Shown here in pieces: positions 7,202-46,529 of a stretch of 64,000 nucleotides of DNA (positions are counted from its first letter, which is position 1; every line of letters begins with the position of its first letter). Location of the stretch: the NCBI GenBank assembly GCA_041653995.1, contig JBAZEK010000001.1:1030613-1094612 (forward strand), given 5' to 3'. This DNA comes from Dehalococcoidia bacterium (lineage in GTDB: Bacteria; Chloroflexota; Dehalococcoidia; GIF9; UBA5629). The notes under the pieces were generated by a model. The model did not search any database, had not been told where the DNA came from, and was given only the letters and a program-made list of their open reading frames with translations. Made by a program: the position numbers and the translations under genes.

Positions 7202-7331
7202 GAGCATTATTGGTTTATGGTAAGTATTTTGGCTTCTATATTTAGTGCCAAATAACCAATATCCCATTGAATACCAGTCCATGCTAAAAAGAGATAAGTG
7301 GTGGTAGTATTACCTGGGGGCAGGTCATTTT

Positions 7332-7407: not shown

Positions 7408-7468
7408 GCAAGACTACATATTATACTAAATCCGCTTCTGTTTGCTAAACGCCAGTGCGGCGATATAG

Positions 7469-8026
7469 CTATTTCTTGCCTTTGGCTGGTTTAGATGGAC
7501 GCGGCTCCGGTGAGCCCATCCAGCGCTCGTAGTGCACGCGCTCCGGCTTGAACCTGTCCTCCATGCGCGGCCTCTCGTCCGGATAGCCTACGGAAACGAG
7601 GGCGATCGGCACTATCCTGGTCGGCATGTTGAGCAGTTTCCTCATACCGTTCATCCTTTCCACCACCGGATAGACGCCGACCCACACCGCCCCCAGTCCC
7701 AGATCATGTGCGGCCAGCAGGATGTTCTGCGTGGCCGCCGAGCAGTCCAGCACACCCCTGCCTCTGGTCAGCTCGAGGCCGCTGTCGTTACACACCAGTA
7801 TGGCAAGCGCGGCTTCCTTGAGCATATGCGCGTGCGGATGAAAGGTCGGCACCTGTACGAGCGTCTTGCGCTCGGTGATGACCACGAAATGCCACGGCTG
7901 CTCATTGGCTGCCGAAGGGGCTGCCATCCCGGCCCGCAGGAGTTGCTCGACAACTTCCGCCGGCACGCGGTTATCCGTATATTTCCTGATGCTTCTGCGC
8001 GTCATGATTGATTCAAATGTTTCCAT
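7469..8026 (-). CDS. nitroreductase family protein
   Basis: 185 aa with the RRSIRKY...APSAANEQPWHFVVI signature of NAD(P)H nitroreductases. Confidence 0.9.
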   Translation of the reverse strand: METFESIMTRRSIRKYTDNRVPAEVVEQLLRAGMAAPSAANEQPWHFVVITERKTLVQVPTFHPHAHMLKEAALAILVCNDSGLELTRGRGVLDCSAATQNILLAAHDLGLGAVWVGVYPVVERMNGMRKLLNMPTRIVPIALVSVGYPDERPRMEDRFKPERVHYERWMGSPEPRPSKPAKGKK

Positions 8027-8050
8027 CGGTTCACCTCGTAAGCGCCGGAT

Positions 8051-9532
8051 CTATATACGCCGCCTGACCCTGGCAATCCAGCGCCCGATTAAAACGATCA
8101 GTGTAATGACTACCGCCGCCAGAACATAAGGCCAGATCATCTCGTAAAGCGGTGTGGGCGGCGGTTGCCTGTATCCGGTTAAATTCACCTTGAGCCTGTT
8201 GTCCAGTCCGCCGGCTATATGGAAAGTAGTCGCAGTCCTCTTGCCTTCTTTCTCGACAACTATCTTATATGTGCCGTAGAAGCCGCGCATTCTGGCGATG
8301 CCGTCATCACCCGTGTACACATCGCCGCGCGACCACCATTTATCACGGATAAGAGTCAGCAGGCGGTTATAGGCCGGCTTTTTCGTCATATCCATCCGCA
8401 ACAGCCCGGCCGGCGCCCCCTGCCAGGCGCCACTATCCGACAGGTCCCACCAGGTTATGGCCTGCACGGACGGGTGGCTGAAGAGCAGTATGTAGAACTT
8501 CTCCGCGTAATCAGCCTGCTCGTTCTCGCCTGCAGGTGTGGACGGCCACTCGGACGGCTGCTCCTGGGACGATATGCCCGTCCTGGGCTTGCCGCTCAAC
8601 ACGGTCACTTCGGTGAAATGAATGGGGGCATCGAAATCCTTGAACCGCTCGCAGGTATCCCAGACTTGGTATAAAGGCCAGTTGCCGCGGTGCATATGCG
8701 ATTGTATGCCTATGGCATCGAATTTACCCTTCTGCCTGACGATCCCCTGGAGCAGATCGCTATAATCCTGGTCGGTGCGAAAATCGTTGATTATGAGCGT
8801 CGACGTCGGGCAGGCCGACCTGGCCCAGCCCAGCGCATCCGCGCAGACCGTCACAGGTGTACGCTGGGACATCCACTTGCCCACCCGGGTGCTCACCTGC
8901 GCGCTCATGGTCGGCTCATTCACAACATCCCAATAATCGATCGTTCCGCAGAATTCACCGGCAATCTCCTTGACCCGCTTCTCCTGCGCTTTTTGCATAT
9001 CATCGGGCCCGACGGGCGCCCAGCCGGGCACCGATTCAGCCCAGATCAGAGGATGTCCCTTTACCGTGATACCCCTTTTCTCACACCATTCCGCAACCAT
9101 CTCGAGCATAATGGCTGATGACTGGCCCTGCTGCTCTTCATAGCTATCCCAGTAAAAAGGCGCGGTGCCGTAATTGAAAAAAGCGCTCAATGCTTCAGCC
9201 CAGTCCTGGTTGACTGCGGTGGGCCCGTTCTCGGCCAGCGGCGCCAGGCCGGTTCCGAAAAGGAAGTCATGGCTCTGCTGCTCGTAGTATACGCGCGCGC
9301 CCCTCACAGGAACGTTGTTCTCGTCCAGCACCTGTATAACGCCATCCCCCTTGCGTATCTTCTCGATACGGTCGCCGGCGCTCTGCATAATGAACCACTC
9401 AAATATCCCATTGTAAGCCTGAATGATGACATTGCCCGCGCTGACCCCAGGCGCCTGGCAGGCCGCCGCAGGCACAAGCAAAGAGACAACCACAATGGTC
9501 AGCGTCGCTATATAAAAACATCTTCTGTTCAT
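8051..9532 (-). CDS. glycoside hydrolase family 10-like (xylanase-like) secreted protein with C-terminal TM anchor
   Basis: Motifs KGHPLIW, DYWDVVNEP (acid/base region) and IHFTEV (nucleophile region) fit GH10. A signal peptide starts at MNRRCFYIATLTIVVVSLLV, so the start is set at ~9532. A hydrophobic C-terminal helix is present. Confidence 0.55.
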   Translation of the reverse strand: MNRRCFYIATLTIVVVSLLVPAAACQAPGVSAGNVIIQAYNGIFEWFIMQSAGDRIEKIRKGDGVIQVLDENNVPVRGARVYYEQQSHDFLFGTGLAPLAENGPTAVNQDWAEALSAFFNYGTAPFYWDSYEEQQGQSSAIMLEMVAEWCEKRGITVKGHPLIWAESVPGWAPVGPDDMQKAQEKRVKEIAGEFCGTIDYWDVVNEPTMSAQVSTRVGKWMSQRTPVTVCADALGWARSACPTSTLIINDFRTDQDYSDLLQGIVRQKGKFDAIGIQSHMHRGNWPLYQVWDTCERFKDFDAPIHFTEVTVLSGKPRTGISSQEQPSEWPSTPAGENEQADYAEKFYILLFSHPSVQAITWWDLSDSGAWQGAPAGLLRMDMTKKPAYNRLLTLIRDKWWSRGDVYTGDDGIARMRGFYGTYKIVVEKEGKRTATTFHIAGGLDNRLKVNLTGYRQPPPTPLYEMIWPYVLAAVVITLIVLIGRWIARVRRRI

Positions 9533-31038: not shown

Positions 31039-31275
31039 TTACATGATGTAGGGCGTGCGGCAGCATTTAAGTGCAACACGATGAGAACATATGGTGGGCG
31101 ATACTGGATTTGAACCAGTGACCCCCTGTGTGTAAGACAGGTAAAAACCTTTAATTGACTGGAGCTTATTGATAATCTCTAGGGAAGCCTTACGTTGTCC
31201 TGAAAGAATCATGCTCAAATAGCTTTTACTGATACCTAATTCTTTGGCTAATTGACTCTGTGTTAACTTTTTCAT
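31039..31275 (-). CDS. XRE-family HTH regulator (island-borne; C-terminus reads through attL into host flank)
   Basis: LTQSQLAKELGISKSYLSMILSGQRKAS HTH_3 motif. The last ~35 codons are encoded by the att repeat and flank. Confidence 0.55.
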   Translation of the reverse strand: MKKLTQSQLAKELGISKSYLSMILSGQRKASLEIINKLQSIKGFYLSYTQGVTGSNPVSPTICSHRVALKCCRTPYIM

Positions 31276-31530
31276 TTATTTCACCCGCCTTTTTATATCC
31301 TTTAAGCCTGCGTTTCCAATTATCGGTAAATATTGGTACGACTTCTTCTGTCTTCCTTTTGCACTAAAGTTCCCCTGTGGTTTTCTCACAAAATGACAGT
31401 CTACCTCATCAATAAGCCATCTCCGTCCAATGTAGAGTGCATTAATCCGTCCCTCTGACAAAAGCTTACGAACCCGTCTCTCAGATATACCAAGCCTTTC
31501 TGCTGCCTGTGGAACCGTAAGTAGTTTCAT
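31276..31530 (-). CDS. excisionase-like HTH DNA-binding protein
   Basis: LLTVPQAAERLGISERRVRKLLSEGRINALYIGRRWLI is an Xis/MerR-type HTH_17-like motif. Confidence 0.6.
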   Translation of the reverse strand: MKLLTVPQAAERLGISERRVRKLLSEGRINALYIGRRWLIDEVDCHFVRKPQGNFSAKGRQKKSYQYLPIIGNAGLKDIKRRVK

Positions 31531-31823
31531 TCAATTACCTTCTATCATTTTAATATTATACCGTTATCGGAATAATGTCAAGTATAATTACAAGCTAAAA
31601 TATCTTTTCTTTTTGCCGCATTTTTCCATAATACTCCGCAGAATTTTTTCAAATCGTATTTAAATTAAGTTTTAAAAGTTCAAGAATGAGGGTTTATAAT
31701 ATGCATATAAACTGGAAGCATATGGAAGGAAGCACGATAGAAAGTTAGAACGTAAGCAAGCGAGTAAGCAAGAAGGAAAGCAGGCGAGCAGGGAAGCTAT
31801 GTTGCTTTCCTTTTTTTAATTTT

Positions 31824-32057
31824 TTGATTCGGAGGTACGAAATGACTGAAAACAAGGTCAAGGAAATTAGATTGAGCAAATGCATGAATCAGAGAGAACT
31901 GGCAGAGAGAGCTCATATCTGTCAAACAGCTATTTCAGACATTGAAAGGGGGGTAAGACTACCATGGAAAGCAGCGTCTGAAAAGCTTGCTATTGCATTG
32001 GGTGTCACAATCGAGGAATTATTCCCAAACAATCTTAGGGGAGGTAAAAATTGCTAA
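31824..32057 (+). CDS. XRE-family HTH regulator (divergent from Xis-like gene)
   Basis: MNQRELAERAHICQTAISDIERG motif. A 290-bp AT-rich divergent intergenic region resembles a lysogeny-type switch. Confidence 0.75.
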   Translation: MIRRYEMTENKVKEIRLSKCMNQRELAERAHICQTAISDIERGVRLPWKAASEKLAIALGVTIEELFPNNLRGGKNC

Positions 32058-32398
32058 ACAAAAATAGAACGTCTTTAAAGCTGGGAAACAAGAAAGTAGG
32101 CTACTTTGAAGGTGATAAATTCATCAAACCCGTAATCGGCTCAAAGCATCTGCTGAAATTTCCTTACCAAGCTTGGGCAATTGATGCCAAAGTATTTGAC
32201 GATGAAATTAAACCTAACGCCAATTATTTTATTGTAAGAGATAGGGAGTCGGGGCTTGAATATAGTTGTACGGTAAAGGACTTCGACAATTTAAAGCGAA
32301 CCATTAACAGAGGGTATGGTAAGCAGTACAGTCTATCTCTAAAACATTGGAAAATAGCAGCTATGGAAGACGCTGAAGCTTCCAGTAACGCAACATAG
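32051..32398 (+). CDS. hypothetical protein
   Basis: 115 aa ORF co-oriented with and overlapping the XRE gene. No recognisable motif. Confidence 0.4.
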   Translation: MLNKNRTSLKLGNKKVGYFEGDKFIKPVIGSKHLLKFPYQAWAIDAKVFDDEIKPNANYFIVRDRESGLEYSCTVKDFDNLKRTINRGYGKQYSLSLKHWKIAAMEDAEASSNAT

Positions 32399-32528
32399 AG
32401 TAGTGCAGCACCCGTTTTAGTAGTTGGAGGTGCTGTGTAAAAATGGTATTAGACAGAAGGAAAAGGCTGATGGAGGAGGGTATGACTCGCCATGATATTT
32501 CAGGAGCCTACTTATTTAATCAATTCAA

Positions 32529-33026
32529 GTGAGTTGTAATAGATGGTCATACCTATTCGATGGTCTTAAGGAGGAAAATATGATTCAGGGCATAGAAAAT
32601 TATATAAATTTAACAGATACCAAGAATGAATGGGCAAAATTTCTAAATGGCTTTGAATGGCATTGGTTCTTTACTCTCACATTTGATAAAAAGGTAAGTG
32701 ATGACTTGGCATACAAGCAATTCTTTAGGTGGAAGAATTGGATAAAGAGTTCAGTAGGACACAGAATTTTCTATCTAATTATTCCTGAGCGTCCCAAGTA
32801 TAAGGGAGATAATACTCATATTCATGGATTTCTTAATGGTGTTGAAAATGAGAAACCCTACATATGGAGAAGGAAATGGGAGGCAATGGCAGGCTTTTCT
32901 CGGATTCAACCCTATGATAGTTCAAGGGGTGCAAGCTATTATCTAGCGGATAAAATTGTATTTAAAGAAGAGGATATTTATCATAGCAAAGACCTAAATA
33001 TGATAAAGATAAATACACTCAATTAA
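32529..33026 (+). CDS. putative HUH-superfamily rolling-circle replication initiator (Rep)
   Basis: Three motifs in canonical order: motif I FFTLTF, motif II HIHGFL (HUH) and motif III SYYLADK (YxxxK). Confidence 0.45.
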   Translation: MSCNRWSYLFDGLKEENMIQGIENYINLTDTKNEWAKFLNGFEWHWFFTLTFDKKVSDDLAYKQFFRWKNWIKSSVGHRIFYLIIPERPKYKGDNTHIHGFLNGVENEKPYIWRRKWEAMAGFSRIQPYDSSRGASYYLADKIVFKEEDIYHSKDLNMIKINTLN

Positions 33027-33165
33027 ATCCATTATATATATCAATATGATTATTACTACAAACATCAATATTTATTTCTTTTACTTTTACTTTTCCTTAT
33101 GCCCCTTTTTTATTTTTGCCCCAAATATGAATTAAATATAAATATCTACAATTAATTGCATAAAA

Positions 33166-33858
33166 TTGGGGCATAGGGAAAAAATCACATATAAAATTCA
33201 AATAGAAAGTCAGGAGGAATCAGTAAGTAAAATGAGTACAATAATTTCAAAACCTACGACAATTCAAATTAGCATGCTTGGGACACATGCCTTTTGTGAA
33301 TATAGGATATATCTTGAGCTTGTTATGGGTTTTAAAGCACGAGGTACACCAGAAATGCTTGAAGGCACAAAAGCACACTCAAGGATAAATACGATGGCTT
33401 TCTTAACGAGAGATTCAAATATTAGCATTGAGGATGCGTTGCTCCAAGCAGAGTCAGACGGAAGAGAAATAACAAAAAGGAACGTACGGGTAACAGGTAA
33501 GATACTACGTGGGAATATCGATGAAATTCACATTGGGCCAAAAGAAATTACGATTATAGATGATAAAAAATGGGCAGAGCATTATCCATCATATAAAAAT
33601 CAAGTCTTTGGCTATTGCCTTGCGTTTAAAGAACAATACAACCCAAAGCAGCCGATATACGGTGCCATAAAGAATTATCAGTCTGGAAAGGAAGTCTGGA
33701 AAAAACAATTTTCAGTTTTGGAAGAGGAATATATAAACGGCATTGTTCAAAGAATACTGGGGATAATTCGTGAGGATATCACTCCAAAACCCATTGGTGT
33801 TAGAGAAGTATGCTGGCAATGTGGATTTAAAAATTACTGCAATGTAAGGACACGATAG
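33166..33858 (+). CDS. Cas4-like / PD-(D/E)XK RecB-family nuclease with 4-Cys cluster
   Basis: An N-terminal Cys (HAFCEY), a D...IDDKK nuclease core, a QVFGY (QxxxY) motif and a C-terminal CWQCGFKNYC three-Cys motif. No CRISPR array is nearby. Confidence 0.5.
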   Translation: MGHREKITYKIQIESQEESVSKMSTIISKPTTIQISMLGTHAFCEYRIYLELVMGFKARGTPEMLEGTKAHSRINTMAFLTRDSNISIEDALLQAESDGREITKRNVRVTGKILRGNIDEIHIGPKEITIIDDKKWAEHYPSYKNQVFGYCLAFKEQYNPKQPIYGAIKNYQSGKEVWKKQFSVLEEEYINGIVQRILGIIREDITPKPIGVREVCWQCGFKNYCNVRTR

Positions 33859-33895
33859 CAAAATGGTGGAAAAAGGAAAAAGAAGAAACTAACTA

Positions 33896-34159
33896 CTATA
33901 CTGCCTTGAAACCCACAATAAAGTAATTTGATTTATCAAATATAAGTCTTATCTTGTGTTCTGAATTATCCTTGCCGGCCAGGGCAATTAAGAATGATAG
34001 CTTCTTTGGATTAGTAACTGTCTTAGAAATTGGACGATGGACAATAAAACCCTCAAGTTCAATCTTCACATATCTACAGCCAGTCTTCGGATATGGCAAA
34101 TCCTTCTCTTCCACAATATCTATATATTTGCATATGGCTGAATTTGTCCTTCTTGGCAT
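33896..34159 (-). CDS. hypothetical protein
   Basis: 87 aa ORF on the opposite strand within the island. Confidence 0.3.
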   Translation of the reverse strand: MPRRTNSAICKYIDIVEEKDLPYPKTGCRYVKIELEGFIVHRPISKTVTNPKKLSFLIALAGKDNSEHKIRLIFDKSNYFIVGFKAV

Positions 34160-34503
34160 ATTTATTTCCTTTCTTCCCTTTTCCGCTAAATTTAAACTAA
34201 ATATAAATATCTACAAATTATTATATTAAATCCACAACCAAATTTGAATATGAATGCCACAGATAAATGGCGGAAAAGAAAAAGAGTCTTAGAGATATTA
34301 TTATTTTGTATTATTTTCTTTAATAGTCAGATAGCAAGTGTGGCTAAGGGCAATTTTACCTTTAAAAATATTGAATCTGGTTGTCATTTGTCTAGTGCTT
34401 TAAAAATAGAAAACCTTCACGTGTGAGAAATGCCAGTAGCACGTGTATTAGAAGCGGCATTTTAAATAAAATCTTAGCCCAAAGTCATAGCAAATATAGA
34501 TTG

Positions 34504-34532
34504 TTGCATGCGTCCTTTTAATACGATAGAAT
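34504..34532 (+). promoter_or_regulatory. sigma70-like promoter TTGCAT-17-TAGAAT (copy 1 of duplicated promoter-leader)
   Basis: The same architecture recurs at 40413-40441. It is followed by a GGGGAG RBS and an ATG at 34559. Confidence 0.5.
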
Positions 34533-34558
34533 ACGGTCAATGTAGTGAGGCTGGGGAG

Positions 34559-36502
34559 ATGAAATATTTACTTGCTTGTTTCATAGCACTATTCGTTATA
34601 TCAGCCTGTGCATCTCAAGTCCATGTTGGTGACCAAGCTCCAAACTTCACACTGACAGATATAAATGGTAAACGTATTAGTCTGCAAGATTTTCGTGGCA
34701 AGCAGGTTGTTCTTTATCTTTGGTTTTTATATTGTCCTGAATGTACAGAAGACCTTGCTGAGATTCAAGAGTTGAATAATAATAGTGACGAAAGAGTCAT
34801 TAAGTTCCTAACCATTAACCCAGAAAATTCATCAAAAGACGTTGCGGATTTTTTCACTAAAAATGGATATAGTTTCCCAGTTTTGTTTGATTTAGATGGA
34901 AGTATTTACAAGCAATATAATTTACGACCTCGGTCTGCACCCTACACAATAATTATTGCTCCTGATGGAAAGATTAACAATATTACAGTGGGGAATCTTC
35001 ATTATCAAGGTGGTTTAAAACGGTTAATTGGAGATAACGTAACATCCTTCAGTCCAAGTGCACAAACTCAAAAGACTCCAATAATTATCGTACCCAGTTT
35101 ACAATCTCATGGTGTCGATGAACTTGCTTATGTATCTAGCGAAACGAACACGAACTCTATATATGTCGTGAATGCAAACGGGGAATATATTGCTAACTCA
35201 TCTGGAAAAATGGATGCATTATACCATGTTAGTTGGTCGCCAAACGGAGATAAGATTATTTTTGAAGTGGTTAAAGATATCAATATAGACCAGAGAAATA
35301 TGACCCTTATTTCTTCGTCTGATATTTATTCTCTTGATATTAAAGACCATGAAGAGCGTAGACTTACTTCAAATTATCCGTATAGCAATTGTTCTCCCAC
35401 ATGGATTGAAGACGATAAAATCGTATTTTATTCAACAAGGGGAAGTTCGTATGGCAGTTTTTTACAAAATATATACATCATGAACGCAGACGGAAGTAAT
35501 CAGATAAATTTAACTAATTGTGCAGAGAATGTACCTATGGTATTAGAACCAATATTATCGCCTGACCACTTGTCTGCAGCATATATTACGGGTAAGTTAT
35601 TCGATGAAGATATATATGTGATAAACCTAGTGAATGGAAATAAATTTGAAATAGGCCATAATCCAACATTTGCACCCTGGACTTGGTGGTCTCCAAACAG
35701 TAAACAGATAGCGTATATATCTGCCTCTCTAAACGGGGGGCCTGAATCATTTTATCTCTACGATGTCGAAAAACAGAAACCGATAAAATACTATGATAGC
35801 CCTCAATCTTATTCTATTATGGAAATAGCATGGTCGCCAGACAGTAACAAAGTCGCTATTTTTGAAAAACCGCAGAGCTTGTATGTTTTAGATTGTCTGA
35901 GTTCCAAGTTTACAAAACTTGATGGGATATGTGACTGGGTAGTAGAGATGAAATGGATACCTAATAACCAACAAATAGCCATTATTGGTGACAGGTTTAC
36001 AAACAGAAACTTGTATGTAATTGATATTGGTGAGCAGAGTAAGCATAAAATCAATCCAGAGGGAACGGCAGTCGAGTCGTATCGATGGTCAACTGATAAT
36101 ACAAGAATCATTTATTGCTTAGATGATGGATATCTTTACACAACTTTCCTACCCAACTTAAATACCATAAAACTAATGCAACTTAATAAAAATACGATAA
36201 AAGGGTTAGCTTTGTCACCAGACGGTTTATTAATCGCTGTTGCTCTGAGTGACGATACTCTAACTGTAATTTCATTAAACAATAACAAGGTGTGCTTGTT
36301 AACTAATGATTATTACAATATTGGAGCAATTTCTTGGTCGCAAAACAGTAACATACTTGCATTTGAATACGGAACTTTATGGGATAGTCCGTTTGTATGC
36401 AGTAACATTCAAATCATCAATTTCGAAAACGAGGAACAGTTCATTAAATTAGATAAACCAATCTCAGGACGCTCTCCAATTTGGGCGAGAAAGGAAAAAT
36501 AA
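34559..36502 (+). CDS. lipoprotein: TlpA-like thioredoxin-fold (CPEC) domain fused to TolB-like beta-propeller
   Basis: Signal/lipobox MKYLLACFIALFVISAC. The redoxin motif is GKQVVLYLWFLYCPEC. The C-terminal ~450 aa carry repeated SWSPNGDKI, AWSPDSNKVA and RWSTDNTRII PD40-like blades. Track ORF 34508 probably starts at 34559. Confidence 0.75.
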   Translation: MKYLLACFIALFVISACASQVHVGDQAPNFTLTDINGKRISLQDFRGKQVVLYLWFLYCPECTEDLAEIQELNNNSDERVIKFLTINPENSSKDVADFFTKNGYSFPVLFDLDGSIYKQYNLRPRSAPYTIIIAPDGKINNITVGNLHYQGGLKRLIGDNVTSFSPSAQTQKTPIIIVPSLQSHGVDELAYVSSETNTNSIYVVNANGEYIANSSGKMDALYHVSWSPNGDKIIFEVVKDINIDQRNMTLISSSDIYSLDIKDHEERRLTSNYPYSNCSPTWIEDDKIVFYSTRGSSYGSFLQNIYIMNADGSNQINLTNCAENVPMVLEPILSPDHLSAAYITGKLFDEDIYVINLVNGNKFEIGHNPTFAPWTWWSPNSKQIAYISASLNGGPESFYLYDVEKQKPIKYYDSPQSYSIMEIAWSPDSNKVAIFEKPQSLYVLDCLSSKFTKLDGICDWVVEMKWIPNNQQIAIIGDRFTNRNLYVIDIGEQSKHKINPEGTAVESYRWSTDNTRIIYCLDDGYLYTTFLPNLNTIKLMQLNKNTIKGLALSPDGLLIAVALSDDTLTVISLNNNKVCLLTNDYYNIGAISWSQNSNILAFEYGTLWDSPFVCSNIQIINFENEEQFIKLDKPISGRSPIWARKEK

Positions 36503-36527
36503 GAAATTTCAAAAATGGAGACTGAAT

Positions 36528-36824
36528 ATGACTGGCGAATTGGGAAATTTTGTTATCGTCATGGGATTACCCTGTTTAGGAGCGCTGTTAATAGCTTTTT
36601 GTTCATTACCAACCGATAAATGGACAATAAAACACACTTTTATGTTGGTGGGAACTTCACTAATTTTTATTAGCTTTATTTTGCAAGCATATCAGATTAT
36701 TGATAAATACCCTGATAAAAATGAATATATATTTGGATGGTGGATTGTCGGTTTAGCTACCGTTATCATGGCTATAATAGGGCAAATTATTAGAATCAGA
36801 TACGGTAAAAGTTGGTTCCAATAG
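36528..36824 (+). CDS. small membrane protein
   Basis: 98 aa with three hydrophobic helices. Confidence 0.4.
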   Translation: MTGELGNFVIVMGLPCLGALLIAFCSLPTDKWTIKHTFMLVGTSLIFISFILQAYQIIDKYPDKNEYIFGWWIVGLATVIMAIIGQIIRIRYGKSWFQ

Positions 36825-36920
36825 GATAATAAAATAGTGGGAAAGGAAAGAGAAGGAAATTTAATTAGCTATCTATATTTAAGATAAGAGTGACTTATAG
36901 AACTTCATTGAGGTTGGGAG

Positions 36921-37451
36921 ATGCAACAACAGTATCAATGCCCTAATTGTAGGTATCCAGTTGCTTATGGGAATAATTTCTGTGGACATTGTAGACAACA
37001 ACTAATCTGGCAACAATTAATGCCACCTTCACCACCAGTACACCATCAGCAAACACCACAAGGCATTATTGGGAAATCACACGAGCAAAACACTTCTGGA
37101 CAAGGTGGTCAATCAATAATACCCGATGAAAAGCGTATTAAACTTCCAAAACTCAATATTCGTTTCGACTTTGAGTTGTTTCAAGCAATTGAGGACAATG
37201 ACCGTAAACTGGCTGAACAGCTCAAAGCAAAATATGGGGATGATGTTTATAATTCCAATTTTTATAACCTGCTTAGTATCGAAGACGCTAACTCAGTAGA
37301 CTCACTTCATCTTAAACTAGTATCAGTTGAAAAAATGAATTTCAATGATATTTTATGCGAAAGTATCAAAATAGAGACTGAAAAAGTACGCAAAAGGATA
37401 GAGGAGCTTGAGAATATAAAAAATTTACGCAACGGGATTGAGGAAGTGTAA
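36921..37451 (+). CDS. zinc-ribbon protein (MQQxYxCPxC family N-terminus)
   Basis: MQQQYQCPNCRYPVAYGNNFCGHCRQQLIW matches the N-termini of chromosomal genes at 56282 and 58107. The rest is charged and coiled-coil-like. Confidence 0.55.
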   Translation: MQQQYQCPNCRYPVAYGNNFCGHCRQQLIWQQLMPPSPPVHHQQTPQGIIGKSHEQNTSGQGGQSIIPDEKRIKLPKLNIRFDFELFQAIEDNDRKLAEQLKAKYGDDVYNSNFYNLLSIEDANSVDSLHLKLVSVEKMNFNDILCESIKIETEKVRKRIEELENIKNLRNGIEEV

Positions 37452-37511
37452 GGAACTGACTAAACCCCTGAAACTGGCAGCTCGAGTAAGAAAAATGGCG
37501 GGAAAGAAAAT

Positions 37512-39368
37512 TTGATTTATATGTTATGGGATGATACGTATCGTAAAGATGCAGCGGAGTATGAAATCTATCTGCGTATGCATCATAAAGAAAAAAACGA
37601 TTACGAGAAGCTTTTATCTAATCTTGAACGTGAGTGGTCAGAAAAATCAGTTAAAGAAGAAAACTACATATCGCTTAAAAAGGAATACACAGCGAAACTA
37701 CAGGAAACAAAGAAGTACATTTCAAAGCTGAAATTCCAGATTACAGCACTCATTAAAAAATGTAATAAAGACATAGATAAAATCGATAGCCAAATTGAAC
37801 AAATTAAATTGCGGCACAAAGTTGGTGAATATTCAGAGGAGAAACTCAAAGAACTATTATCACCATCTGAAACAGAAAGAAGGCAATTTGAATCCTTAAT
37901 AATCGAACTGAAACGCATACATGGCTTGAAATATATACCTAAACCAACTACCGATGATGTTGTATCAGAAACAGAACCGAGTCAGCCTAGAAGGTCTCCT
38001 ATCCCAACGTCATCTACTTCTATTTCAACAGCTGAAGAGCAAGCCCCCGAAATATCAGCACCAATGAGTTTTGAAGAACCGCCTCCTATTTTGGTACCTG
38101 CTGTATTTAAAAAGTCTTCACCTGTAAGAGTAAAGAAGAGTCTGTGGATTATGGCTTCGATTACTATGTTTGTAATATTAATTCTCTGTTTTGTTATTTG
38201 GAATATAGAAGTGCATAAAAAGGTAATCCCTCAGATTGGAGACCAAGCTCCAAACTTCTCTCTCCCAGATATGAATGGTAAAACGGTTAACCTTCAGGAC
38301 TTTCACGGAAAGGGTGTTGTTCTTTACCTTTGGGACACATCATGTCCTTACTGCAAAAATGACCTTAGCTGGATAAATGAATTAAATGGCTGCACCTATG
38401 ACGAAGCAATAATATTTTTAACTATTAATATCTCAGATTCACGTGGAACAGCTATTAAATATTTTGAGGAAAATGGATATAGTATTCCCGTTTTAAATGA
38501 TATGCGTGGGACGGTTATTAAGCAGTATGTAAAGTACACCTTAGGCCATACGTATCCAGATACTATTCTTATTGGTTCAAATGGCCAGATTCGTAATGTA
38601 AAAGTCGGGCCCTTCCAAAGCAAGACTGAATTAAAAACATTTATAGAATCAGGTTTAACCCCCCGTTGGGATAATACTCCTCCACAAATTTATGATATTA
38701 ATCTTTCTAAGGCCTCTATTTTGAGTTGGAAAACGGATGAGGAAACACATAGTAATATACAAGGGTTTCGTAATAGTGTCGGAGGTGCTGGAGTCACTCT
38801 TGGTGAAAATTGGACAAGATATCATAGCGTAAATGAAACAGTTTGCACTAATGGCTACTATGACCAAATTCAAATCAACTCGTATGACCGCTGCGGTAAT
38901 TCTGCTTCAAAAGTTTTTACACTGCCCAACTGCATAAATTTAGGTTGTAGAGCTCCTGATTTCACAGCAACTTCAACTAATAATCAGGATATAACGCTGT
39001 CCGCAGTACCTAGCAAAATGACTCTACTTCACTTCTGGCTACTCGGATGTGGTGCATGTGAAAAGGAACTTCCATTAATCCAAAAACTATATTATGAGCG
39101 TCCTAGAGAAGAACTTGAGATATTGGCTGTGAATGTTAGAGGTGACATATACAGCATAAATGACTTCGTTACTGCAAATGGTTATAGATTAATTATTTTA
39201 CTAGATACAGAAGGCATAATAGATGCCGCCTATCATAATCCAAGGTTCCCCACAACCTTTTTATTGGATTGCAATAAGGTAATTATTAACAAGCATGACG
39301 GTGCCTTTCAAAATTATGAAGAAATCGTTGATTTTGTAGGTCAGTATCCAAAACTTCCTGGTAAATAG
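37512..39368 (+). CDS. membrane-anchored protein with N-terminal coiled coil and two TlpA-like thioredoxin-fold domains (CPYC and CGAC)
   Basis: TTG start. Single TM (LWIMASITMFVILILCFVIW). Domain 1 is IPQIGDQAPNFSL...VVLYLWDTSCPYCKND. Domain 2 is GCRAPDF...LLHFWLLGCGACEKE. Confidence 0.7.
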   Translation: MIYMLWDDTYRKDAAEYEIYLRMHHKEKNDYEKLLSNLEREWSEKSVKEENYISLKKEYTAKLQETKKYISKLKFQITALIKKCNKDIDKIDSQIEQIKLRHKVGEYSEEKLKELLSPSETERRQFESLIIELKRIHGLKYIPKPTTDDVVSETEPSQPRRSPIPTSSTSISTAEEQAPEISAPMSFEEPPPILVPAVFKKSSPVRVKKSLWIMASITMFVILILCFVIWNIEVHKKVIPQIGDQAPNFSLPDMNGKTVNLQDFHGKGVVLYLWDTSCPYCKNDLSWINELNGCTYDEAIIFLTINISDSRGTAIKYFEENGYSIPVLNDMRGTVIKQYVKYTLGHTYPDTILIGSNGQIRNVKVGPFQSKTELKTFIESGLTPRWDNTPPQIYDINLSKASILSWKTDEETHSNIQGFRNSVGGAGVTLGENWTRYHSVNETVCTNGYYDQIQINSYDRCGNSASKVFTLPNCINLGCRAPDFTATSTNNQDITLSAVPSKMTLLHFWLLGCGACEKELPLIQKLYYERPREELEILAVNVRGDIYSINDFVTANGYRLIILLDTEGIIDAAYHNPRFPTTFLLDCNKVIINKHDGAFQNYEEIVDFVGQYPKLPGK

Positions 39369-39441
39369 ATAATTTCTTGATATTAAGAAATCGAGGTGTA
39401 CTGGTCTGAACCCCTGAAACTGGACAGCTTGAGTAAGAAAA

Positions 39442-39951
39442 ATGGCGGAAAAAGAAATGCAACAGGAGGAGCATCCCCTAAATATGGGGAAGCTACTTGT
39501 GAATTTCCAATCACTTGAGATAGCTCTCCGTCTATTTCTTTATAATGATGAAATTGCCTCTAGAGTTTCATCTCCTCAGGCGGTAAACCTAAATGCTATG
39601 AATGCGGGGGATATAGTAGCTGAAAATGCGTTCACAAACTATGATAGTCTAAGTCAACTCATTGATAAATATAATAACCATCCCAACATCATATCGACAG
39701 GTCTAACCATTGATAAGACTTTAGTGGACATACGTGATGCAATAGCTCATGGAAGAGTCGCTGGAGTCACTCCTTTGCTTGTGCCTCCTTTAAAACTAAT
39801 GAAGTTTGATAAACCAAAGAACAAAAGTGTGAAAGTAACATTTAGCGTTTTATTGACAAGGGAATGGTTCATTCTAGAGATGGCTAAGGTTCAAGATGCA
39901 GTTTTTAAAGTCTTTCAAGCTATCCAAATAATACAGAGTGCTAAGACATAA
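39442..39951 (+). CDS. hypothetical protein with possible HEPN-like Rx4H motif
   Basis: 169 aa. RDAIAHGR fits Rx4-6H. The evidence is weak. Confidence 0.35.
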   Translation: MAEKEMQQEEHPLNMGKLLVNFQSLEIALRLFLYNDEIASRVSSPQAVNLNAMNAGDIVAENAFTNYDSLSQLIDKYNNHPNIISTGLTIDKTLVDIRDAIAHGRVAGVTPLLVPPLKLMKFDKPKNKSVKVTFSVLLTREWFILEMAKVQDAVFKVFQAIQIIQSAKT

Positions 39952-40412
39952 GTGGTGCCCTCTGAAATCGCTCTGAGGGGCTGAAATCAGGGTGTTGCAT
40001 ATTGAACATGACGGATTCCACCTGTCATTACTATTCCAGCTTAATTAGAGCCTTTAAAGTATTAAACAGTAAAGGTAATAACTCTACTTCCTTTCCCTTA
40101 AGCCCCTTTATTATTTCTTCGCCTAAGTTTCCGTTCAAGTGAATTATGTCGCTTTTAAGACCAACAAACGCTGGTACACCATAAACACGTTTACGTTCAA
40201 GCCAATTATGTCGTTTTGCATATATTATTTCCAGCTTAAATTAACTACAGAAAAATGGGGCAAAAAGAGAAAAAGGGGAATTATATATCAATTTATTGTC
40301 AATAATCTTTGAAATACTATTACTTCATCTGAGAGAGATGCCAGCAGCTAAGTGTAACGGCATTGAATTTTAAATAACTTCTCAGCCCAAAGTGGTAACG
40401 CATATAGGTCTA

Positions 40413-40441
40413 TTGCATAAGTATTGTTCATATAATAGAAT
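40413..40441 (+). promoter_or_regulatory. sigma70-like promoter TTGCAT-17-TAGAAT (copy 2 of duplicated promoter-leader)
   Basis: 83 bp spanning promoter -10, RBS and the first 17 codons is identical to 34526-34608. Confidence 0.5.
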
Positions 40442-40467
40442 ACGGTCAATGTAGTGAGGCTGGGGAG

Positions 40468-41880
40468 ATGAAATATTTACTTGCTTGTTTCATAGCACTA
40501 TTCGTTATATCAGCCTGCACACCAAATAACTCAATAAACAACGTTGAGACATTCCCAAAAATCGGAGATAAGATACCGAATATCTCATGGACTACTATCA
40601 ATGGCGAAAAGATTGATTTAAATCAGTTTAAAGGCAGTTGGGTGCTACTATGCTATTGGTGCTCTTGCCCTGTACATAGGAATGACATACTGACTATTCA
40701 TAATGTTTATGATTCATTATATGATAAGAATCTCGATGTCATTGTAATTAATGATACTTATGCTCAGATAGAATTAGAGGCATTTGGAAAACAAAACAAT
40801 GTACCGTTTTATTTAATTGAAGATAATCAAAAAACAATTGATAAACTTGTACCATTTGGCAACAGGCCAATATATCTCTTAATTGATGGGAGTGGGGATT
40901 TACATGCTATCGAAATAGGTACATTTCGCTCTGGCGAAAATAGCGTTAACAATGTAATCAATTTCCTTGATGATGTGATTAAGGTAAGAATCGATAATAT
41001 TACAGTCACTAATATTACTTCAAATAGGGCAACTGTGAGATGGAAAACAGATAAGGCAGTACCGTGTTGGTTGGAAATTCACCCCCAAGGTGACCCAATC
41101 GGAAAGTGCATCGGCAAGACAAATCCAAATACATTTCATGAATTGATATTAAACTGTAATCCCAACACAGCTTACACTTTTAACGTAGCTGCTAGTGGAT
41201 TAGATAATTCTTTAATTAACGATGCAAGCAATCGTAGTAGTGAATTTTCATTTCAAACATTACCAAATTGGGTTACTTCTTTATATGAGGTTGACTCTAC
41301 TAAACCAAAAATATCGAATGTTAAAGTTTCTATAATTACAGATACGAGTGCAGAGTTATATTGGGAAACTGATGTGGAAGCTCAAGTCACCGCTACAATC
41401 TGTAAATATATATCCAGTACTGATGCGCCCTTAAACTCCCAGAAAATTGATTTTATAGAAGACATATATTTTACAAAGAAACATAGCTTTACAATTAGCT
41501 CTCTTGAGCCAAGACGATTATATGACGTTGGTTTAAATGCCAAAGATAGAATGGGAAGGGTTGCCGATTACAGTGTCGAATTTTTAACACAACCTTCAAA
41601 TTATACTCACGGAGCGAAGATATCCAATATATCTTTATATGACATCACGGACAGGAGTGCTAAATTAAAATGGTCAACTGACAAGTCAGTATGGAGTTCA
41701 GCCTGCTATAAATATGAGTGCTCTTCTGGGGACATCAACACTGAGCATTCATATACACTATCCTATGGTCTGGAACCCGATACAGAATACTGGGTGCAAA
41801 TTCTAGCACATGGGGAATCGGTATCTGATGTATTCAACTTCAGAACATTAAAGACAACAGATAAGGTAGATATGAAATGA
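40468..41880 (+). CDS. lipoprotein: TlpA-like thioredoxin-fold domain with variant CYWCSC motif plus three FN3/PAP-N-like domains
   Basis: Identical signal peptide MKYLLACFIALFVISAC. IGDKIPNISW...WVLLCYWCSCPVHRND. Three ~95-aa domains of type ITVTNITSNRATVRWKTD / VKVSIITDTSAELYWETD / ISNISLYDITDRSAKLKWSTD. Confidence 0.7.
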   Translation: MKYLLACFIALFVISACTPNNSINNVETFPKIGDKIPNISWTTINGEKIDLNQFKGSWVLLCYWCSCPVHRNDILTIHNVYDSLYDKNLDVIVINDTYAQIELEAFGKQNNVPFYLIEDNQKTIDKLVPFGNRPIYLLIDGSGDLHAIEIGTFRSGENSVNNVINFLDDVIKVRIDNITVTNITSNRATVRWKTDKAVPCWLEIHPQGDPIGKCIGKTNPNTFHELILNCNPNTAYTFNVAASGLDNSLINDASNRSSEFSFQTLPNWVTSLYEVDSTKPKISNVKVSIITDTSAELYWETDVEAQVTATICKYISSTDAPLNSQKIDFIEDIYFTKKHSFTISSLEPRRLYDVGLNAKDRMGRVADYSVEFLTQPSNYTHGAKISNISLYDITDRSAKLKWSTDKSVWSSACYKYECSSGDINTEHSYTLSYGLEPDTEYWVQILAHGESVSDVFNFRTLKTTDKVDMK

Positions 41881-41907
41881 AAGAAAATCAAAAGGGAGGT
41901 AAAGAAG

Positions 41908-42084
41908 ATGGTAGCAAATAAGAAGAAGTATTATGCAGGGGAATCAGCTAAAGTCTCTGGCAAATACAACGAATGCAGATTGGGCACAGGCAAAACAGGA
42001 GTAACAGCAAATGTCAAGAAGGGGGATACACTCCCACCACATAAAATAGGAGCTCATTGGGAGTTATCAAGAAAATCTAAATAA
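41908..42084 (+). CDS. small ORF (58 aa) with strong RBS, not in supplied track
   Basis: AAAGGGAGGTAAAGAAG precedes the ATG at 41908. It encodes MVANKKKYYAGESAKVSGKYNECRLGTGKTGVTANVKKGDTLPPHKIGAHWELSRKSK. Confidence 0.3.
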   Translation: MVANKKKYYAGESAKVSGKYNECRLGTGKTGVTANVKKGDTLPPHKIGAHWELSRKSK

Positions 42085-42316
42085 TATAGACATATTTAAG
42101 AAAGTGGTGACTTATAAAACTTCATGCTGTCCTGAAAGCTGAATGACCGAGTATATCTTTGCACCATAATAAAGTTCAGCCAAGGCACCGTTAAAATGTA
42201 CTACAGAATTGTTCTAAAGGGCCAAAATGGGGTATATAATATAGGGCATGACAGATTCTTCCTGCCTGAGCTTTTCAAGCTTAATTATTGAACAAATAAC
42301 TATGAAATCCTGATTG

Positions 42317-43081
42317 CTAACGAGGTAACTGATTTGAGCCGTTCACATCTTTGTAGACTTGAAGAGCATCCTCAAAGGATAAAGATTTTGAATACCTTTC
42401 AACCATAGAAATGCTTTCCCAACCGCCTAGATTTTGCACAATACGAGTGGATAACCCAGACTTAATATTGTGAATACAAAACCCTCTTCTATAGCTATGG
42501 GCGTTGGACTTAATGCCAGTTTCTTTAGACAATCGTTTAAGCATAGTTTTAATGCCAGCTCTTGATATTTCAAAACTATCATGCTCATCAAACCACTTTC
42601 CGATAACACCATTACCAGCTAAAGCCTTACGATACTTGTTACCCTTGCCCAGAATGGTTACTGTACCTTCACCCCAGTCAAAGTCTTTAGCGTGCACATT
42701 AGCACATTCACTCAGCCTTACTCCTGAGTACCATAAGAAACTAATTAATGCTCTATCACGTTCACAATGACAATGATTTATCAGAACTTCTAATTGTTCT
42801 TTTGATACCGCAGGCAATAGCTTCTTTTGAATTTTTGGGCTAGGAACTTTGTCAATAACCTTGTCGTGAATATAGCTATTGCTGTATAGCCATGAAATGA
42901 GAGTTTTGAGAGCTTGATAGAATCTTGCTTTGCCATTATGACAGGTAAGTGATTTTAGATAAGCATTAACTCCATCTGGACTTAGGGGATAACCAATAAA
43001 ATGAGTTAAAGTATATTCGTAAAATTCAATAGTTCGCTTACTACAACCATCGGGGCGAGAAGAAATAAACTTCTCCAACAA
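42317..43081 (-). CDS. int: tyrosine recombinase / integrase (short XerC/D-like)
   Basis: 254 aa with catalytic R (WYSGVRLSE), K (LGKGNKYRK), HSYRRG (HxxR), R and the terminal VERY tyrosine. Its start is 63 nt from tRNA-Val. Confidence 0.85.
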   Translation of the reverse strand: MLEKFISSRPDGCSKRTIEFYEYTLTHFIGYPLSPDGVNAYLKSLTCHNGKARFYQALKTLISWLYSNSYIHDKVIDKVPSPKIQKKLLPAVSKEQLEVLINHCHCERDRALISFLWYSGVRLSECANVHAKDFDWGEGTVTILGKGNKYRKALAGNGVIGKWFDEHDSFEISRAGIKTMLKRLSKETGIKSNAHSYRRGFCIHNIKSGLSTRIVQNLGGWESISMVERYSKSLSFEDALQVYKDVNGSNQLPR

Positions 43082-43143
43082 TTCTTTTGTGAACTTTTTG
43101 TAGCTAACTTGTGAATATTGTGAAATTGAGCTGTAGTTTTCTT

Positions 43144-43219
43144 TGGTGGGCGATACTGGATTTGAACCAGTGACCCCCTGTGTGTAAGACAGGTGCTCTA
43201 ACCGCTGAGCTAATCGCCC
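43144..43219 (-). tRNA. tRNA-Val (anticodon TAC); integration target
   Basis: 76-nt cloverleaf. Anticodon loop CTTACAC. CCA is encoded. It is highly similar to canonical tRNA-Val. Confidence 0.9.
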
Positions 43220-44586: not shown

Positions 44587-45612
44587 ATGCAGCAATGGAT
44601 AAGATGCACCAGATGCGGCGCCAATAATGCTCCCGGACAGAAATTCTGTAACGCATGCGGTACACCCCTGCCGACCGTCTGCCCCAATTGCGGAACCCCG
44701 GCAGGTCCCGGCAGCACTTTCTGCGCCAGGTGCGGCATGACATTCAGCGGTATGCCCCAGCAGACCGGATATTACCCTCCGCAGCAGCCGGGATATCCTC
44801 AGCAACCTGGCTATCCGCAGCAACCGGCATATCCGCAACAGCCGGGCTATCCTCAGCAACCGGGCTATCCTCAGCAACCGGGCTATCCGCAACAGCCGGG
44901 ATACCCGCAACAGCCTGGATATCCGCAGCAGCCCCCCGGCTACCCGCCTCAACAGACCGGCTATTATCCTCCGCAGCAGCCGGGTTATCCTCCACAGCCG
45001 GGATATCCGCAGCAACCGCCCGGTTATCCGCCGCAGCCGGGATATCCGCAACAGCCCGGCTATCCCCAGCAACCGGGATATCCGCCGGGCTATCCTCCGC
45101 AGCAGCCGCCACGCGGAGCGTATCCGCCGGGCGCAAGGCCACCCCAGCAAGGCGGCGGCAAAGGCATGCTCATATTGCTGCTGGTTGTTCTGATTGCCGG
45201 CCTGGCAGGCTTCGGTTACTGGGCTTACAGCCAGGGCTACCTCAAGGGCATACTTAACTTCGGCAGCGATAACACCACCACCTCCACAGGGAAACAGAAG
45301 GACACTGTGCCGCCCACCATCAGCGGCGTAGAAGTTAGCGCCAAGGCCATAAACGAAGTCGGCATTATCTGGAAGACGGACAAGCCATCCAGTTCTCAGG
45401 TGGAATGGGGTCCCAAGGGATCGTTCGGCAACAAGACGACACTACAGGATGACCCCGTGAGCGGTACCAGCATCGGTGTCACCGATCACGGGGTTATCGT
45501 CAAGGGATTAACGGCAAATACTGAATACCAGTACCGTGTGTTATCACATACCGACGGCAACGTTGACGCCGTATCCGCCACCAATACTTTCACGACACCT
45601 TCGGCAGATTAA
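44587..45612 (+). CDS. double zinc-ribbon / PQQPGY-repeat / TM / FN3-like surface protein
   Basis: N-terminus [23 protein letters not shown]. About 25 PQQPGY hexapeptide repeats are encoded by an 18-bp DNA tandem. Then a TM helix and a C-terminal Ig/FN3-like domain. Confidence 0.6.
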
Positions 45613-45644: not shown

Positions 45645-46529
45645 ATGTATCAATCAACAGTACCCTGCCCTAAATGCGGCGCGCAGAACCTGCGGGGACA
45701 GTGGGTATGCGCGTACTGCGGAAATACGCTTGTCGTTTATTGTCCATCCTGCCATACCGGCAACGCCATCGACAGCCAGTATTGCCACGCCTGCCATGCA
45801 GTTCTCGCGTATACCGGCGTTCCGCCGGCTCAACCACAGTATCAACCCCAACCCCAGCAGCCTCAACCATATCCGCAGTACCCGCAATATCCTCCCGGGC
45901 AAACTGACCAGGGCCAGTACCCTCCGCAGTATCCACCCTACCCTCCACCCGGTTATCCACCACAGCAACCACCCTACCCGGACTACCAGGCCGGATACGG
46001 CCAGCCCGGCGATTATAAACCATACTCGGTTCACGGCGGCGAAGCCTACGCCGGAGGCGGGCTGGACGGCCTGATCGACAGGCTCAAAGAGTTCGTGCGC
46101 AATACCAATCCCATTCTCCTCTCTTCGCTGGTGGTGCTGGTAGTCGGTCTGACCATCTTCCTCATCCTGGCCTTCCAGTTCGGCTGGATCAAGACGGGTT
46201 CGGCGCCCAAAGTAGAAACAGTTAAAGATACCACAGCTCCTGTGATAACTTATTTAACTTATGAGCCCGGTGAAAATAGAAGCATTATAATAATTTGGGC
46301 AACCAATGAGCCAGCAAGTACGCGGGTCGAGTGGGGTATCGCACCTGTTTTCAACCAATTCACACTTATAGAAAACGATCCCCAAGTTGGCCAAGGTACA
46401 CTTTCACATAGGGTAACATTGACTAACCTGCTACCAAACACCAGCTATATTTACCGCGCAATATCATATGACAAAGCAGGGAACAAATGCATGAGTCCTA
46501 CTATGCCATTCCAAACTACGAACTACTAG
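45645..46529 (+). CDS. zinc-ribbon / P,Q,Y-rich / TM / FN3-like surface protein (paralog)
   Basis: CPKCGAQN..CAYCG..CPSCH..CHACH, a PQY-rich tract, a TM helix and a C-terminal FN3-like domain. Confidence 0.6.
   Translation: MYQSTVPCPKCGAQNLRGQWVCAYCGNTLVVYCPSCHTGNAIDSQYCHACHAVLAYTGVPPAQPQYQPQPQQPQPYPQYPQYPPGQTDQGQYPPQYPPYPPPGYPPQQPPYPDYQAGYGQPGDYKPYSVHGGEAYAGGGLDGLIDRLKEFVRNTNPILLSSLVVLVVGLTIFLILAFQFGWIKTGSAPKVETVKDTTAPVITYLTYEPGENRSIIIIWATNEPASTRVEWGIAPVFNQFTLIENDPQVGQGTLSHRVTLTNLLPNTSYIYRAISYDKAGNKCMSPTMPFQTTNY

Follow-up and report, generated by a model that had tools for sequence, protein, structure and literature searches.

A probable gene-conversion tract spanning the promoter and lipoprotein leader of two anciently diverged thioredoxin-fold genes on a Dehalococcoidia integrative island

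Introduction

How two genes that are otherwise unalignable at the DNA level come to start with the same sequence is the question raised by a 64,000-nucleotide (nt) stretch from a Dehalococcoidia bacterium (NCBI GenBank assembly GCA_041653995.1, contig JBAZEK010000001.1, positions 1,030,613 to 1,094,612 of the forward strand), which we analyzed at its full length and refer to as the window. The two genes, called A and B here, lie on one 12-kb low-GC integrative island, and each is headed by a copy of a promoter/leader/signal-peptide cassette, the two copies being 5.9 kb apart in direct orientation. The initial annotation had described a segment of ~185 bp recurring ahead of two different TlpA-like genes, with its last 83 bp identical, and had proposed cassette shuffling, gene conversion, or recent duplication as its origin. 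In this report, we compared the two copies with each other and with their counterparts on contigs of other family members, which were fetched and aligned segment by segment. This led us to a reading to which we assign a probability of roughly 80%: the 83-nt identity is a recent gene-conversion tract between the island's anciently diverged paralogs, and the module in which it lies is ancestral to the family. The cassette copies, the genes they head, and the gene between them are as follows.

34415..34525, + strand: copy A, upstream part; AT-rich, with a hairpin-like ATGCC..GGCAT palindrome and a −35 element, TTGCAT, at 34504-34509
34526..34608, + strand: copy A, 83-nt block; −10 element TAGAAT at 34527-34532, short 5′ untranslated region (UTR), Shine-Dalgarno (SD) candidate GAGG at 34547-34550
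34559 to 34607-34609, + strand: coding part of the copy A block; ATG at 34559, signal-peptide codons up to the lipobox Cys codon at 34607-34609
34559..36502, + strand: gene A (647 amino acids [aa]; MFA5399816.1); lipoprotein leader, ResA/TlpA-like thioredoxin (Trx) fold (CPEC), PD40/TolB-like β-propeller
37512..39368, + strand: middle gene (618 aa); coiled coil, transmembrane segment, two Trx-fold domains (CPYC and CGAC), no cassette
40323..40434, + strand: copy B, upstream part; −35 element TTGCAT at 40413-40418
40435..40517, + strand: copy B, 83-nt block; −10 element TAGAAT at 40436-40441, SD candidate GAGG at 40456-40459
40468 to 40516-40518, + strand: coding part of the copy B block; ATG at 40468, lipobox Cys codon at 40516-40518
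40468..41880, + strand: gene B (470 aa; MFA5399821.1); same leader, divergent Trx fold (CYWCSCPVH), Fn3/purple-acid-phosphatase-N-like repeats

Results

The first finding of this study is that the repeat consists of two unequal parts. Alignment of copies A and B gives 83/83 identical nt between 34526-34608 and 40435-40517, and this block is the longest exact direct repeat within the window, the 51-nt att repeat of the island ranking second. On its 5′ side, contiguous homology extends over about 110 nt, to about 34415 and 40323, with ~62–70% identity, small indels, and a local alignment score of 58 against a mean of 18.4 and a maximum of 28 in 500 shuffles. The repeat proposed in the initial annotation is therefore genuine, except that it begins ~10 nt further upstream than described. 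At the ~70% identity of this flank, the chance of 83 straight matches is 1.4e-13. On the 3′ side, the DNA is unalignable, its score of 13 being under the shuffle mean of 17.3, which bears out the immediate divergence of the coding sequences. The boundary is abrupt: the Cys17 codon is TGT in A and TGC in B, its third base being the first to differ; the two genes thus share their first 17 residues, as annotated, but only 50/51 of the bases that encode them. A third copy of the cassette was looked for in the island, and none was found.

Behind this boundary, A and B resemble each other only distantly. The proteins are 32% identical over 157 residues, a figure that includes the identical leader; once the 17-residue leader is set aside, identity falls to about 25–30% in the Trx domain, past which the two are unrelated. 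In DNA, the bodies share about 40% of their bases, the level expected by chance.

Protein searches yielded a B family (P0002-P0012) and relatives of the Trx domain of A (P0014-P0018), and the promoter/leader/lipobox module proved to be common to the whole family, in which it occurs as two alleles. The type I leader is MKYLLACFIALFVISAC in the island, with the family pattern MKYLL(A/P)CF(I/L)ALFVISAC, and is carried by A, B, P0010, and P0015; the type II leader is MGNKIQYLLICVLA.LAISAC, with the family pattern MG(N/S)K(I/F)(Q/K)Y(L/F)L(I/V).V(L/I)A.LAIS(A/G)C, and is carried by P0017, P0002, P0006, P0004, and P0008. Relative to type II, type I lacks 16–24 nt, among them the type II start codon, and starts at a downstream ATG instead; on these alignments, type I is a complex derived character. 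The allele is independent of the type of gene body: proteins as different as those of 647, 470, 372, and 366 aa all begin with type I, in agreement with the proposed shuffling of bodies behind one leader, and type I leaders on a B-type body were found independently in ENA and JGI data. P0002, the ortholog of B, is 85–88% identical to it in DNA from the first codon past the lipobox Cys, but its leader is of type II and differs by a 16-nt indel.

Comparison by segment separates the history of the leader from that of the body. The −10-to-Cys segment clusters by leader type (88–99% identity among type I loci, 69–84% among type II loci, and 50–58% between the types), whereas the 330 nt past the Cys codon cluster by body type (73–77% among A, P0015, and P0017, 52–85% in the B group, and 35–43% between the groups). 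When informative sites are counted among A, B, and P0002, B agrees with A at 27 sites and with P0002 at 0 in the leader, compared with 30 and 186 in the body (leader vs. body, Fisher p = 2.7e-20); in the upstream 120 nt, the counts are 36 and 16. Over the upstream homologous part of the cassette, identity is 62% between A and B and only 38% between B and its ortholog P0002. That the leader of B sides with A and its body with P0002 argues for a conversion tract and against recent whole-gene duplication. A second case is provided by P0010, with a type I leader, and P0006, which has a type II leader and the same 3′ end and downstream neighbor: the counts are 18:5 in the leader vs. 43:137 in the body (p = 5e-7), and the upstream region of P0010 looks native. 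The incongruence of B and of P0010 indicates that replacement of the leader by recombination between paralogs happened at least twice. Across genomes, the type I core (SD plus signal-peptide codons) is identical at 59–62/63 nt and the 20 nt before it at 13–15/20, a contrast that fits tracts with different 5′ ends.

What was found at this locus is what characterizes a conversion tract, namely a near-identity block with sharp bounds and incongruence between tract and flank with respect to ortholog outgroups. As mapped here, the breakpoints are in the −10 box (GATAGAAT) and in the lipobox codons (ATATCAGCCTG), both of which are motifs conserved across the family and the only stretches with enough homology left between A-type and B-type genes. 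Gene conversion, one of the origins initially proposed, is thus strongly supported by the segment-wise incongruence and by the three-way site test. The history that we propose starts from a promoter/short 5′ UTR/lipoprotein signal-peptide module that would be ancestral to the whole gene family. Recent nonreciprocal homologous recombination between the island's two paralogs would then have made the 83-nt identity, the tract being anchored at one end on the −10 box with the adjacent UTR and at the other on the lipobox codons, with homology ending beyond. An older exchange may have made the upstream 110 nt of B A-like. Both copies are in one island, and the nonreciprocity and direction of the exchange, with gene B as the probable recipient, are read solely from the native upstream region of P0002 and its leader type.

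The exchanged segment comprises a candidate promoter. Within the window, TTGCAT-17 nt-TAGAAT has just two matches, 34504-34532 and 40413-40441, in line with the conserved promoter that had been annotated; its −10 element matches the consensus at 5/6 positions, and its spacer is 17 nt. The assignment is based on conservation across loci and not on a generic scan: the TTGYAT-17-TAGAAT architecture is kept in seven loci from other assemblies, and a homologous TTGTAT-17-TAGAAT promoter, together with a short UTR, precedes most genes of the family. Across the region, promoter-like sites are no more frequent than in shuffles. The ribosome-binding site has to be revised. GGGGAG, to which this role had been given, directly abuts the ATG in both copies, and GAGG (34547-34550 and 40456-40459), with a spacing of 8 nt to the start and kept in all type I leaders, is therefore the likelier SD; type II leaders have their own GAGG-like run 9–11 nt before their start codon. 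A segment at 39566-39579, within the open reading frame (ORF) 39442-39951, is complementary at 13/14 nt to the SD/start region of the cassette (CTGGGGAGATGAAA), which we judge to be chance level given the number of such pairs nearby.

The coding part of the exchanged segment is predicted to encode a lipoprotein signal peptide. The JGI gene call for A starts at an upstream ATG, 34508 (664 aa), but 34559 is the better start, because a start at 34508 would place the leader inside the protein, and no corresponding extension exists in B. Under the PS51257-type lipobox rule, the n-region is positively charged, the hydrophobic core is free of charge, and the Cys of [LVI][ASTVI][GAS]-C falls at position 15–35. 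The leader MKYLLACFIALFVISAC conforms to it, with K2, no charged residue at 3–16, and I-S-A-C with Cys17, and the homologous leaders of the relatives all end in [ISVP][AGS][AGS]C. It is a reasonable inference that both proteins are lipid anchored with identical lipoprotein targeting and, likewise, that A and B are co-regulated; the window contains neither lgt nor lspA, the host genes for lipoprotein modification and cleavage. The gaps between genes are 25–96 nt from A through the four following genes to 39951, and 516 nt before B. A is probably the first gene of a five-gene unit ending at 39951, and the short gaps after A together with the long one before B make it likely that the two cassette copies head the island's two cargo transcription units. 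As a consequence of the exchange, A with its four downstream genes, and B, would fire from the same promoter and use the same translation start region, and both proteins would sit on the outer side of the membrane on the same lipid anchor. From the sequences compared here, we infer promoter activity, co-expression, and lipidation, as well as the direction of the exchanges and their timing. The suggestion that the cassette serves alternative effector bodies is not supported, since complete promoters in direct orientation lead one to expect joint expression, and nothing marks the proteins as effectors.

The description of the proteins as TlpA-like is acceptable in part. AhpC-TSA of Pfam matches A with 87.4 bits, the middle gene with 130.6, and B with 47.9 (cutoff 26); A also matches Redoxin and propeller families of Pfam; and Bacillus subtilis ResA is the top PDB match for both A (6e-20) and B (8e-8). 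However, none of the three reaches the NCBIfam ResA model (a subfamily model with a cutoff of 170), for which A scores 89.5, the middle gene 161.7, and B 53, or the NCBIfam TlpA model (an equivalog model with a cutoff of 230), for which the scores are 28–57. CXXC is present in A (CPEC) and in the middle gene (CPYC and CGAC), while in B, C-P-V-H aligns to C-P-H-C of ResA with the second Cys replaced by His. Extra cysteines at −2 and −5 give CYWCSC in B, and CYWCSCPVH is conserved across the B family (P0002-P0011), in which it may represent a noncanonical CxC, a single-Cys redox site, or a noncatalytic domain. The first Trx domain of the middle gene is 43% identical to that of A, with a nucleotide repeat of 70%. 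This gene is called from a TTG at 37512; 17 nt before it, at 37495, is an ATG in another frame (ATGGCGGGAAAGAAA). Its relatives P0014 and P0018 have longer N termini, so the middle gene may have a frameshift or a mis-set start.

We also asked how common the type I leader is in contig collections. The exact 50-nt signal-peptide pattern gave 0 matches in genome contigs and in viral contigs, and a codon-degenerate ACFIALFVISAC pattern, which misses P0010 through its Ala-to-Pro change, gave 0 in metagenome contigs and genome contigs. A 32-nt pattern that fits all four type I leaders found only the known JGI contig (L014 = L003) and nothing in viral contigs; the type I leader is therefore rare in the scanned collections. 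A leader-only protein search with a three-fold tandem query returned no match, and as it also missed the known carriers, it is uninformative.

Discussion

The reading that we prefer, a recent conversion tract between old paralogs, has to be held against several points that weigh the other way. The −35 element TTGCAT agrees with the Escherichia coli consensus at just 3/6 positions, and the cassette promoter went uncalled in the generic promoter consensus scan. The type I genes found number only four, and they settle the order of the exchanges and their direction only in part; in both B and P0010 the Cys codon reads TGC, a match that could, but need not, stem from a common junction. Selection at the nucleotide level could have some share in keeping the 63-nt type I core nearly invariant across genomes. 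Finally, the view taken here is that of a 64-kb window, and further donors could lie elsewhere in the 1.28-Mb genome.

Among the other explanations, the one that fares best is purifying selection on the nucleotide sequence itself, for the sake of an mRNA structure, an operator for a small RNA or a protein, or a membrane-targeting signal at the mRNA level. The 63-nt type I block, kept at 59–62/63 in at least three assemblies next to a UTR at 13–15/20, speaks for such selection, and in some single-sequence folds of the leader the SD region pairs with lipobox codons in B (z = −2.3) and in P0002 (z = −2.8). The leaders of A (z = +0.8) and P0010 (z = +0.3), however, fold no better than shuffles; the RNAalifold consensus of the leader is empty (−0.62 kcal/mol, 4 pairs, no compensatory changes or covarying pairs); and an Rfam scan of the island (E ≤ 1) returned tRNA matches only. 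The fold of the hairpin-like palindrome upstream is not significant either (z = −0.4 and −1.3), and no convincing small ORFs ending at the start of the upstream homology were found. With folds that are inconsistent and mostly at shuffle level, and an empty alignment fold, the leader was rejected as an RNA element. Type II leaders on orthologous bodies, which are 69–84% identical, show that change is tolerated, and selection leaves unexplained why a derived allele, with its 16-nt indel and shifted start codon, is present on both body types. We consider this explanation very unlikely.

Cassette exchange might also be programmed and driven by a recombinase, as in the Mycoplasma vpma/vsp/vsa systems or in shufflons. 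The Xer-like recombinase of the island would then swap bodies at 5′ sites or delete the 5.9-kb interval, and it does lie close by, 437 nt from the end of gene B. A B-type gene beside a homologous integrase recurs in L011-L013, and there is a precedent in Mycoplasma agalactiae, in which Xer1 recombination sites lie at −1 to −72 in the 5′ UTRs of vpma genes (PMC2268961). Yet copies in direct orientation would lead to deletion and not to inversion, both carry a full −35/−10 and thus leave no silent cassettes, and inverted repeats at the locus are limited to short, chance-level ones. The cassette is unlike the att core (score 6–7 vs. shuffle means of 7.7–7.9), integration at tRNA-Val fully accounts for the recombinase, and the arrangement is the same in two assemblies. 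A system of this kind is, in our view, highly improbable here.

Recent duplication of a whole gene or promoter-leader-gene unit, followed by fast divergence of the mature part, had been among the origins proposed and is almost certainly wrong. That both genes have a Trx fold right after the leader, with 32% identity over 157 aa when the leader is counted, does make them paralogs at some depth. On the other hand, the bodies are at chance identity beside a leader at 100%, the body of B is 85% identical to that of P0002, which has the other leader allele, and the boundary falls within one codon. Zero changes at about 31 unconstrained sites would have p = 1.6e-6 at the divergence level of the upstream part, and no divergence process spares 83 nt, including the synonymous sites of 16 codons, next to unalignable DNA. 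We give next to no credence to an assembly artifact, in which a chimeric join or collapsed repeat made the second copy: the source is a metagenome-assembled genome, but the independent contig L001 has the same arrangement, the name of that contig implies k = 141, which exceeds the length of the 83-nt repeat, each copy sits in its own diverged yet homologous upstream region, and type I leaders on B-type bodies come independently from ENA and JGI data.

Having weighed these explanations, we return to gene conversion and to the systems that it brings to mind, of which the closest functional analog is the erp family of Borrelia burgdorferi, a likeness in how the systems work, and on a much smaller scale here. 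In erp (“upstream homology box”; ospE/ospF/elp), a conserved promoter/operator and leader-peptide module heads diverse mature parts; the genes are on cp32 prophages and are shaped by recombination between paralogs, and their co-expression follows from the shared promoters (PMC10016077). Similarly, the type I module heads four architectures, is found on a mobile island, and shows demonstrable leader exchange. The differences are that the host is an environmental Dehalococcoidia and not a host-associated spirochete, that the bodies are enzyme-like Trx folds with Fn3 or a propeller and not adhesins, and that there are two copies per island, which has no virion genes, as against 6–12 replicons. 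We expect no sequence homology with the promoters, leaders, or proteins of erp. The vpma genes of M. agalactiae, vsp of Mycoplasma bovis, and vsa of Mycoplasma pulmonis are, like the genes here, lipoprotein multigene families in which the 5′ regions are conserved and a tyrosine recombinase lies next to the locus (PMC2268961). Unlike in those systems, where there is one promoter and site-specific inversion, each gene here has its own promoter and the repeats are direct, and inverted sites and rearranged variants were not seen. The proteins resemble ResA, TlpA, and DsbE (CcmG) in having a Trx fold above the Pfam gathering cutoff and a predicted N-terminal membrane anchor, but they differ in that their domains are fused to a propeller or Fn3 and their genes are island borne and outside a cytochrome-c maturation operon.

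Concerted evolution of a promoter/leader module is well known in Borrelia erp and in Mycoplasma vlp/vsp/vpma, and gene conversion at the present locus would extend it from the lipoproteins of pathogens to the cargo of a Dehalococcoidia island. A paralogous lipoprotein family with a recombining promoter/leader module is fairly ordinary gene-family evolution, with no new mechanism. The example is nevertheless compact and well delimited, with mapped breakpoints exactly at the −10 box and the lipobox cysteine; it offers, to a lineage for which genetic tools are scarce, a candidate native promoter, ribosome-binding site, and lipoprotein leader; and it flags an uncharacterized family of island-borne Trx-fold lipoproteins, one branch of which has the noncanonical CYWCSCPVH. 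A bolder extension, which we regard as unlikely, is that the promoter/leader module is a horizontally circulating “expression-and-anchoring cassette” grafted repeatedly onto the surface-protein bodies of Dehalococcoidia integrative elements. If this were true, it would be an erp-like diversification system in a free-living, nonpathogenic lineage; the elements might use it to remodel the host surface, for instance for redox maturation of exported proteins or exclusion of competing elements; and the 63-nt core would be kept by frequent exchange between genomes or by a dedicated mechanism involving the recombinase, Rep, or a Cas4-like nuclease.

Genomic context and additional observations

The island that carries both cassette copies is defined by the following features.

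31092..43194, no strand: low-GC integrative island (12 kb)
42317..43081, − strand: small Xer-like tyrosine recombinase (integrase), adjoining the tRNA and gene B
43144..43219, − strand: tRNA-Val(TAC), the integration target, identified by ARAGORN, Rfam tRNA matches, and alignment

GC content is about 0.34–0.40 (about 0.36) in the island and about 0.48–0.60 in the flanks (background about 0.54). Exact 51-nt direct repeats at 31092-31142 and 43144-43194 bound the island; they are attL/attR, the 3′ 51 nt of tRNA-Val(TAC) being duplicated at 31092-31142, and Rfam recognizes a partial tRNA copy at 31095-31160. The integrase matches Phage_integrase of Pfam (76 bits), a PHROG integrase, and the XerA-like model of NCBIfam (110 bits, under its cutoff). 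It is unusually short, at 254 aa with a TTG start, and lies 62 nt from the tRNA; its homolog in L011, which is 40% identical and stands beside the B-type gene P0008, carries about 55 extra N-terminal residues. The island integrase may be truncated, or its start may be mis-set. Other island genes encode an excisionase-like helix-turn-helix protein, XRE regulators, a Rep-like protein, and a Cas4-like nuclease. No virion genes were found in the island, in which only regulators, excisionase, and integrase are recognized by PHROGs, and the phage collection gave no match to the Rep-like protein; the element is an integrative island and not evidently a prophage. It has the tyrosine integrase, the att repeats derived from a tRNA 3′ end, and the compositional deviation of a tRNA-integrated genomic island. 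Like other tRNA-targeting islands, it has its integrase beside the tRNA, a 51-nt att duplication, a strongly deviating GC content, and excisionase-like and XRE regulators; unlike typical ones, it has a small (254 aa), Xer-like integrase and a backbone with a Rep-like protein and a Cas4-like nuclease. The host is listed at NCBI as a Dehalococcoidia metagenome-assembled genome, and a second, independent assembly from ENA (L001) has the same island at 99.9% identity, the differences from the window being at the end of the L001 contig and in an 18-nt repeat indel elsewhere.

Relatives of the two genes have tRNA or integrase neighbors. P0010 and P0002 are just downstream of tRNA-Glu(TTC) (L002 4335-4410; L010 48-123), and P0008 is near an integrase (L011 1999-2958) that is 40% identical to that of the island; on this basis, the lipoprotein family seems, in several genomes, to move together with integrative elements that target tRNA genes. 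There is domain shuffling within the family. P0012 (645 aa) has a B-type Trx/Fn3 N terminus joined to a PD40 propeller, P0015-P0017 have an A-type Trx domain with an Fn3-like segment of about 79% DNA identity to part of the middle gene (38667-38754), and in L005 a separate propeller gene (7214-8344) follows a Trx gene. An origin of A by fusion of an A-type Trx gene with such a neighboring propeller gene was considered and is unsupported, the propellers being 22–28% identical.

Two other repeats were seen in the island. A 70-nt direct repeat, 74% identical, occurs at 33097-33166, upstream of the Cas4-like gene, and at 34162-34231, in the divergent intergenic region before ORF 33896-34159 (− strand), and could mark another regulatory region that was duplicated in the backbone of the island. 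The purine-rich sequence AATGGCGGRAAAGAAA occurs at 34266-34281, 37494-37509, and 39441-39456, always on the + strand and inside the island (3 matches in the window vs. 0.10 expected by chance), with a degenerate copy near 40252. It overlaps a repeat, 37478-37511/39425-39458 (88%), and possible “MAGKK/MAEKE” gene starts. It lies about 200–290 nt upstream of both cassettes, and a similar sequence is found about 190 nt upstream of P0010 (L002, about 4581-4598); the sequence could serve as another shared start region or bind a regulator.

On the host side of the tRNA cluster, the genes at 44587-45612 and 45645-46529 encode proteins with a zinc ribbon, long P/Q/G/Y-rich repeats (PQQPGY), a transmembrane segment, and a C-terminal Fn3/purple-acid-phosphatase-N-like domain that resembles the Fn3 repeats of gene B. 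It is in the PQQPGY repeat array that the window and L001 differ by the 18-nt indel (44842-44859).

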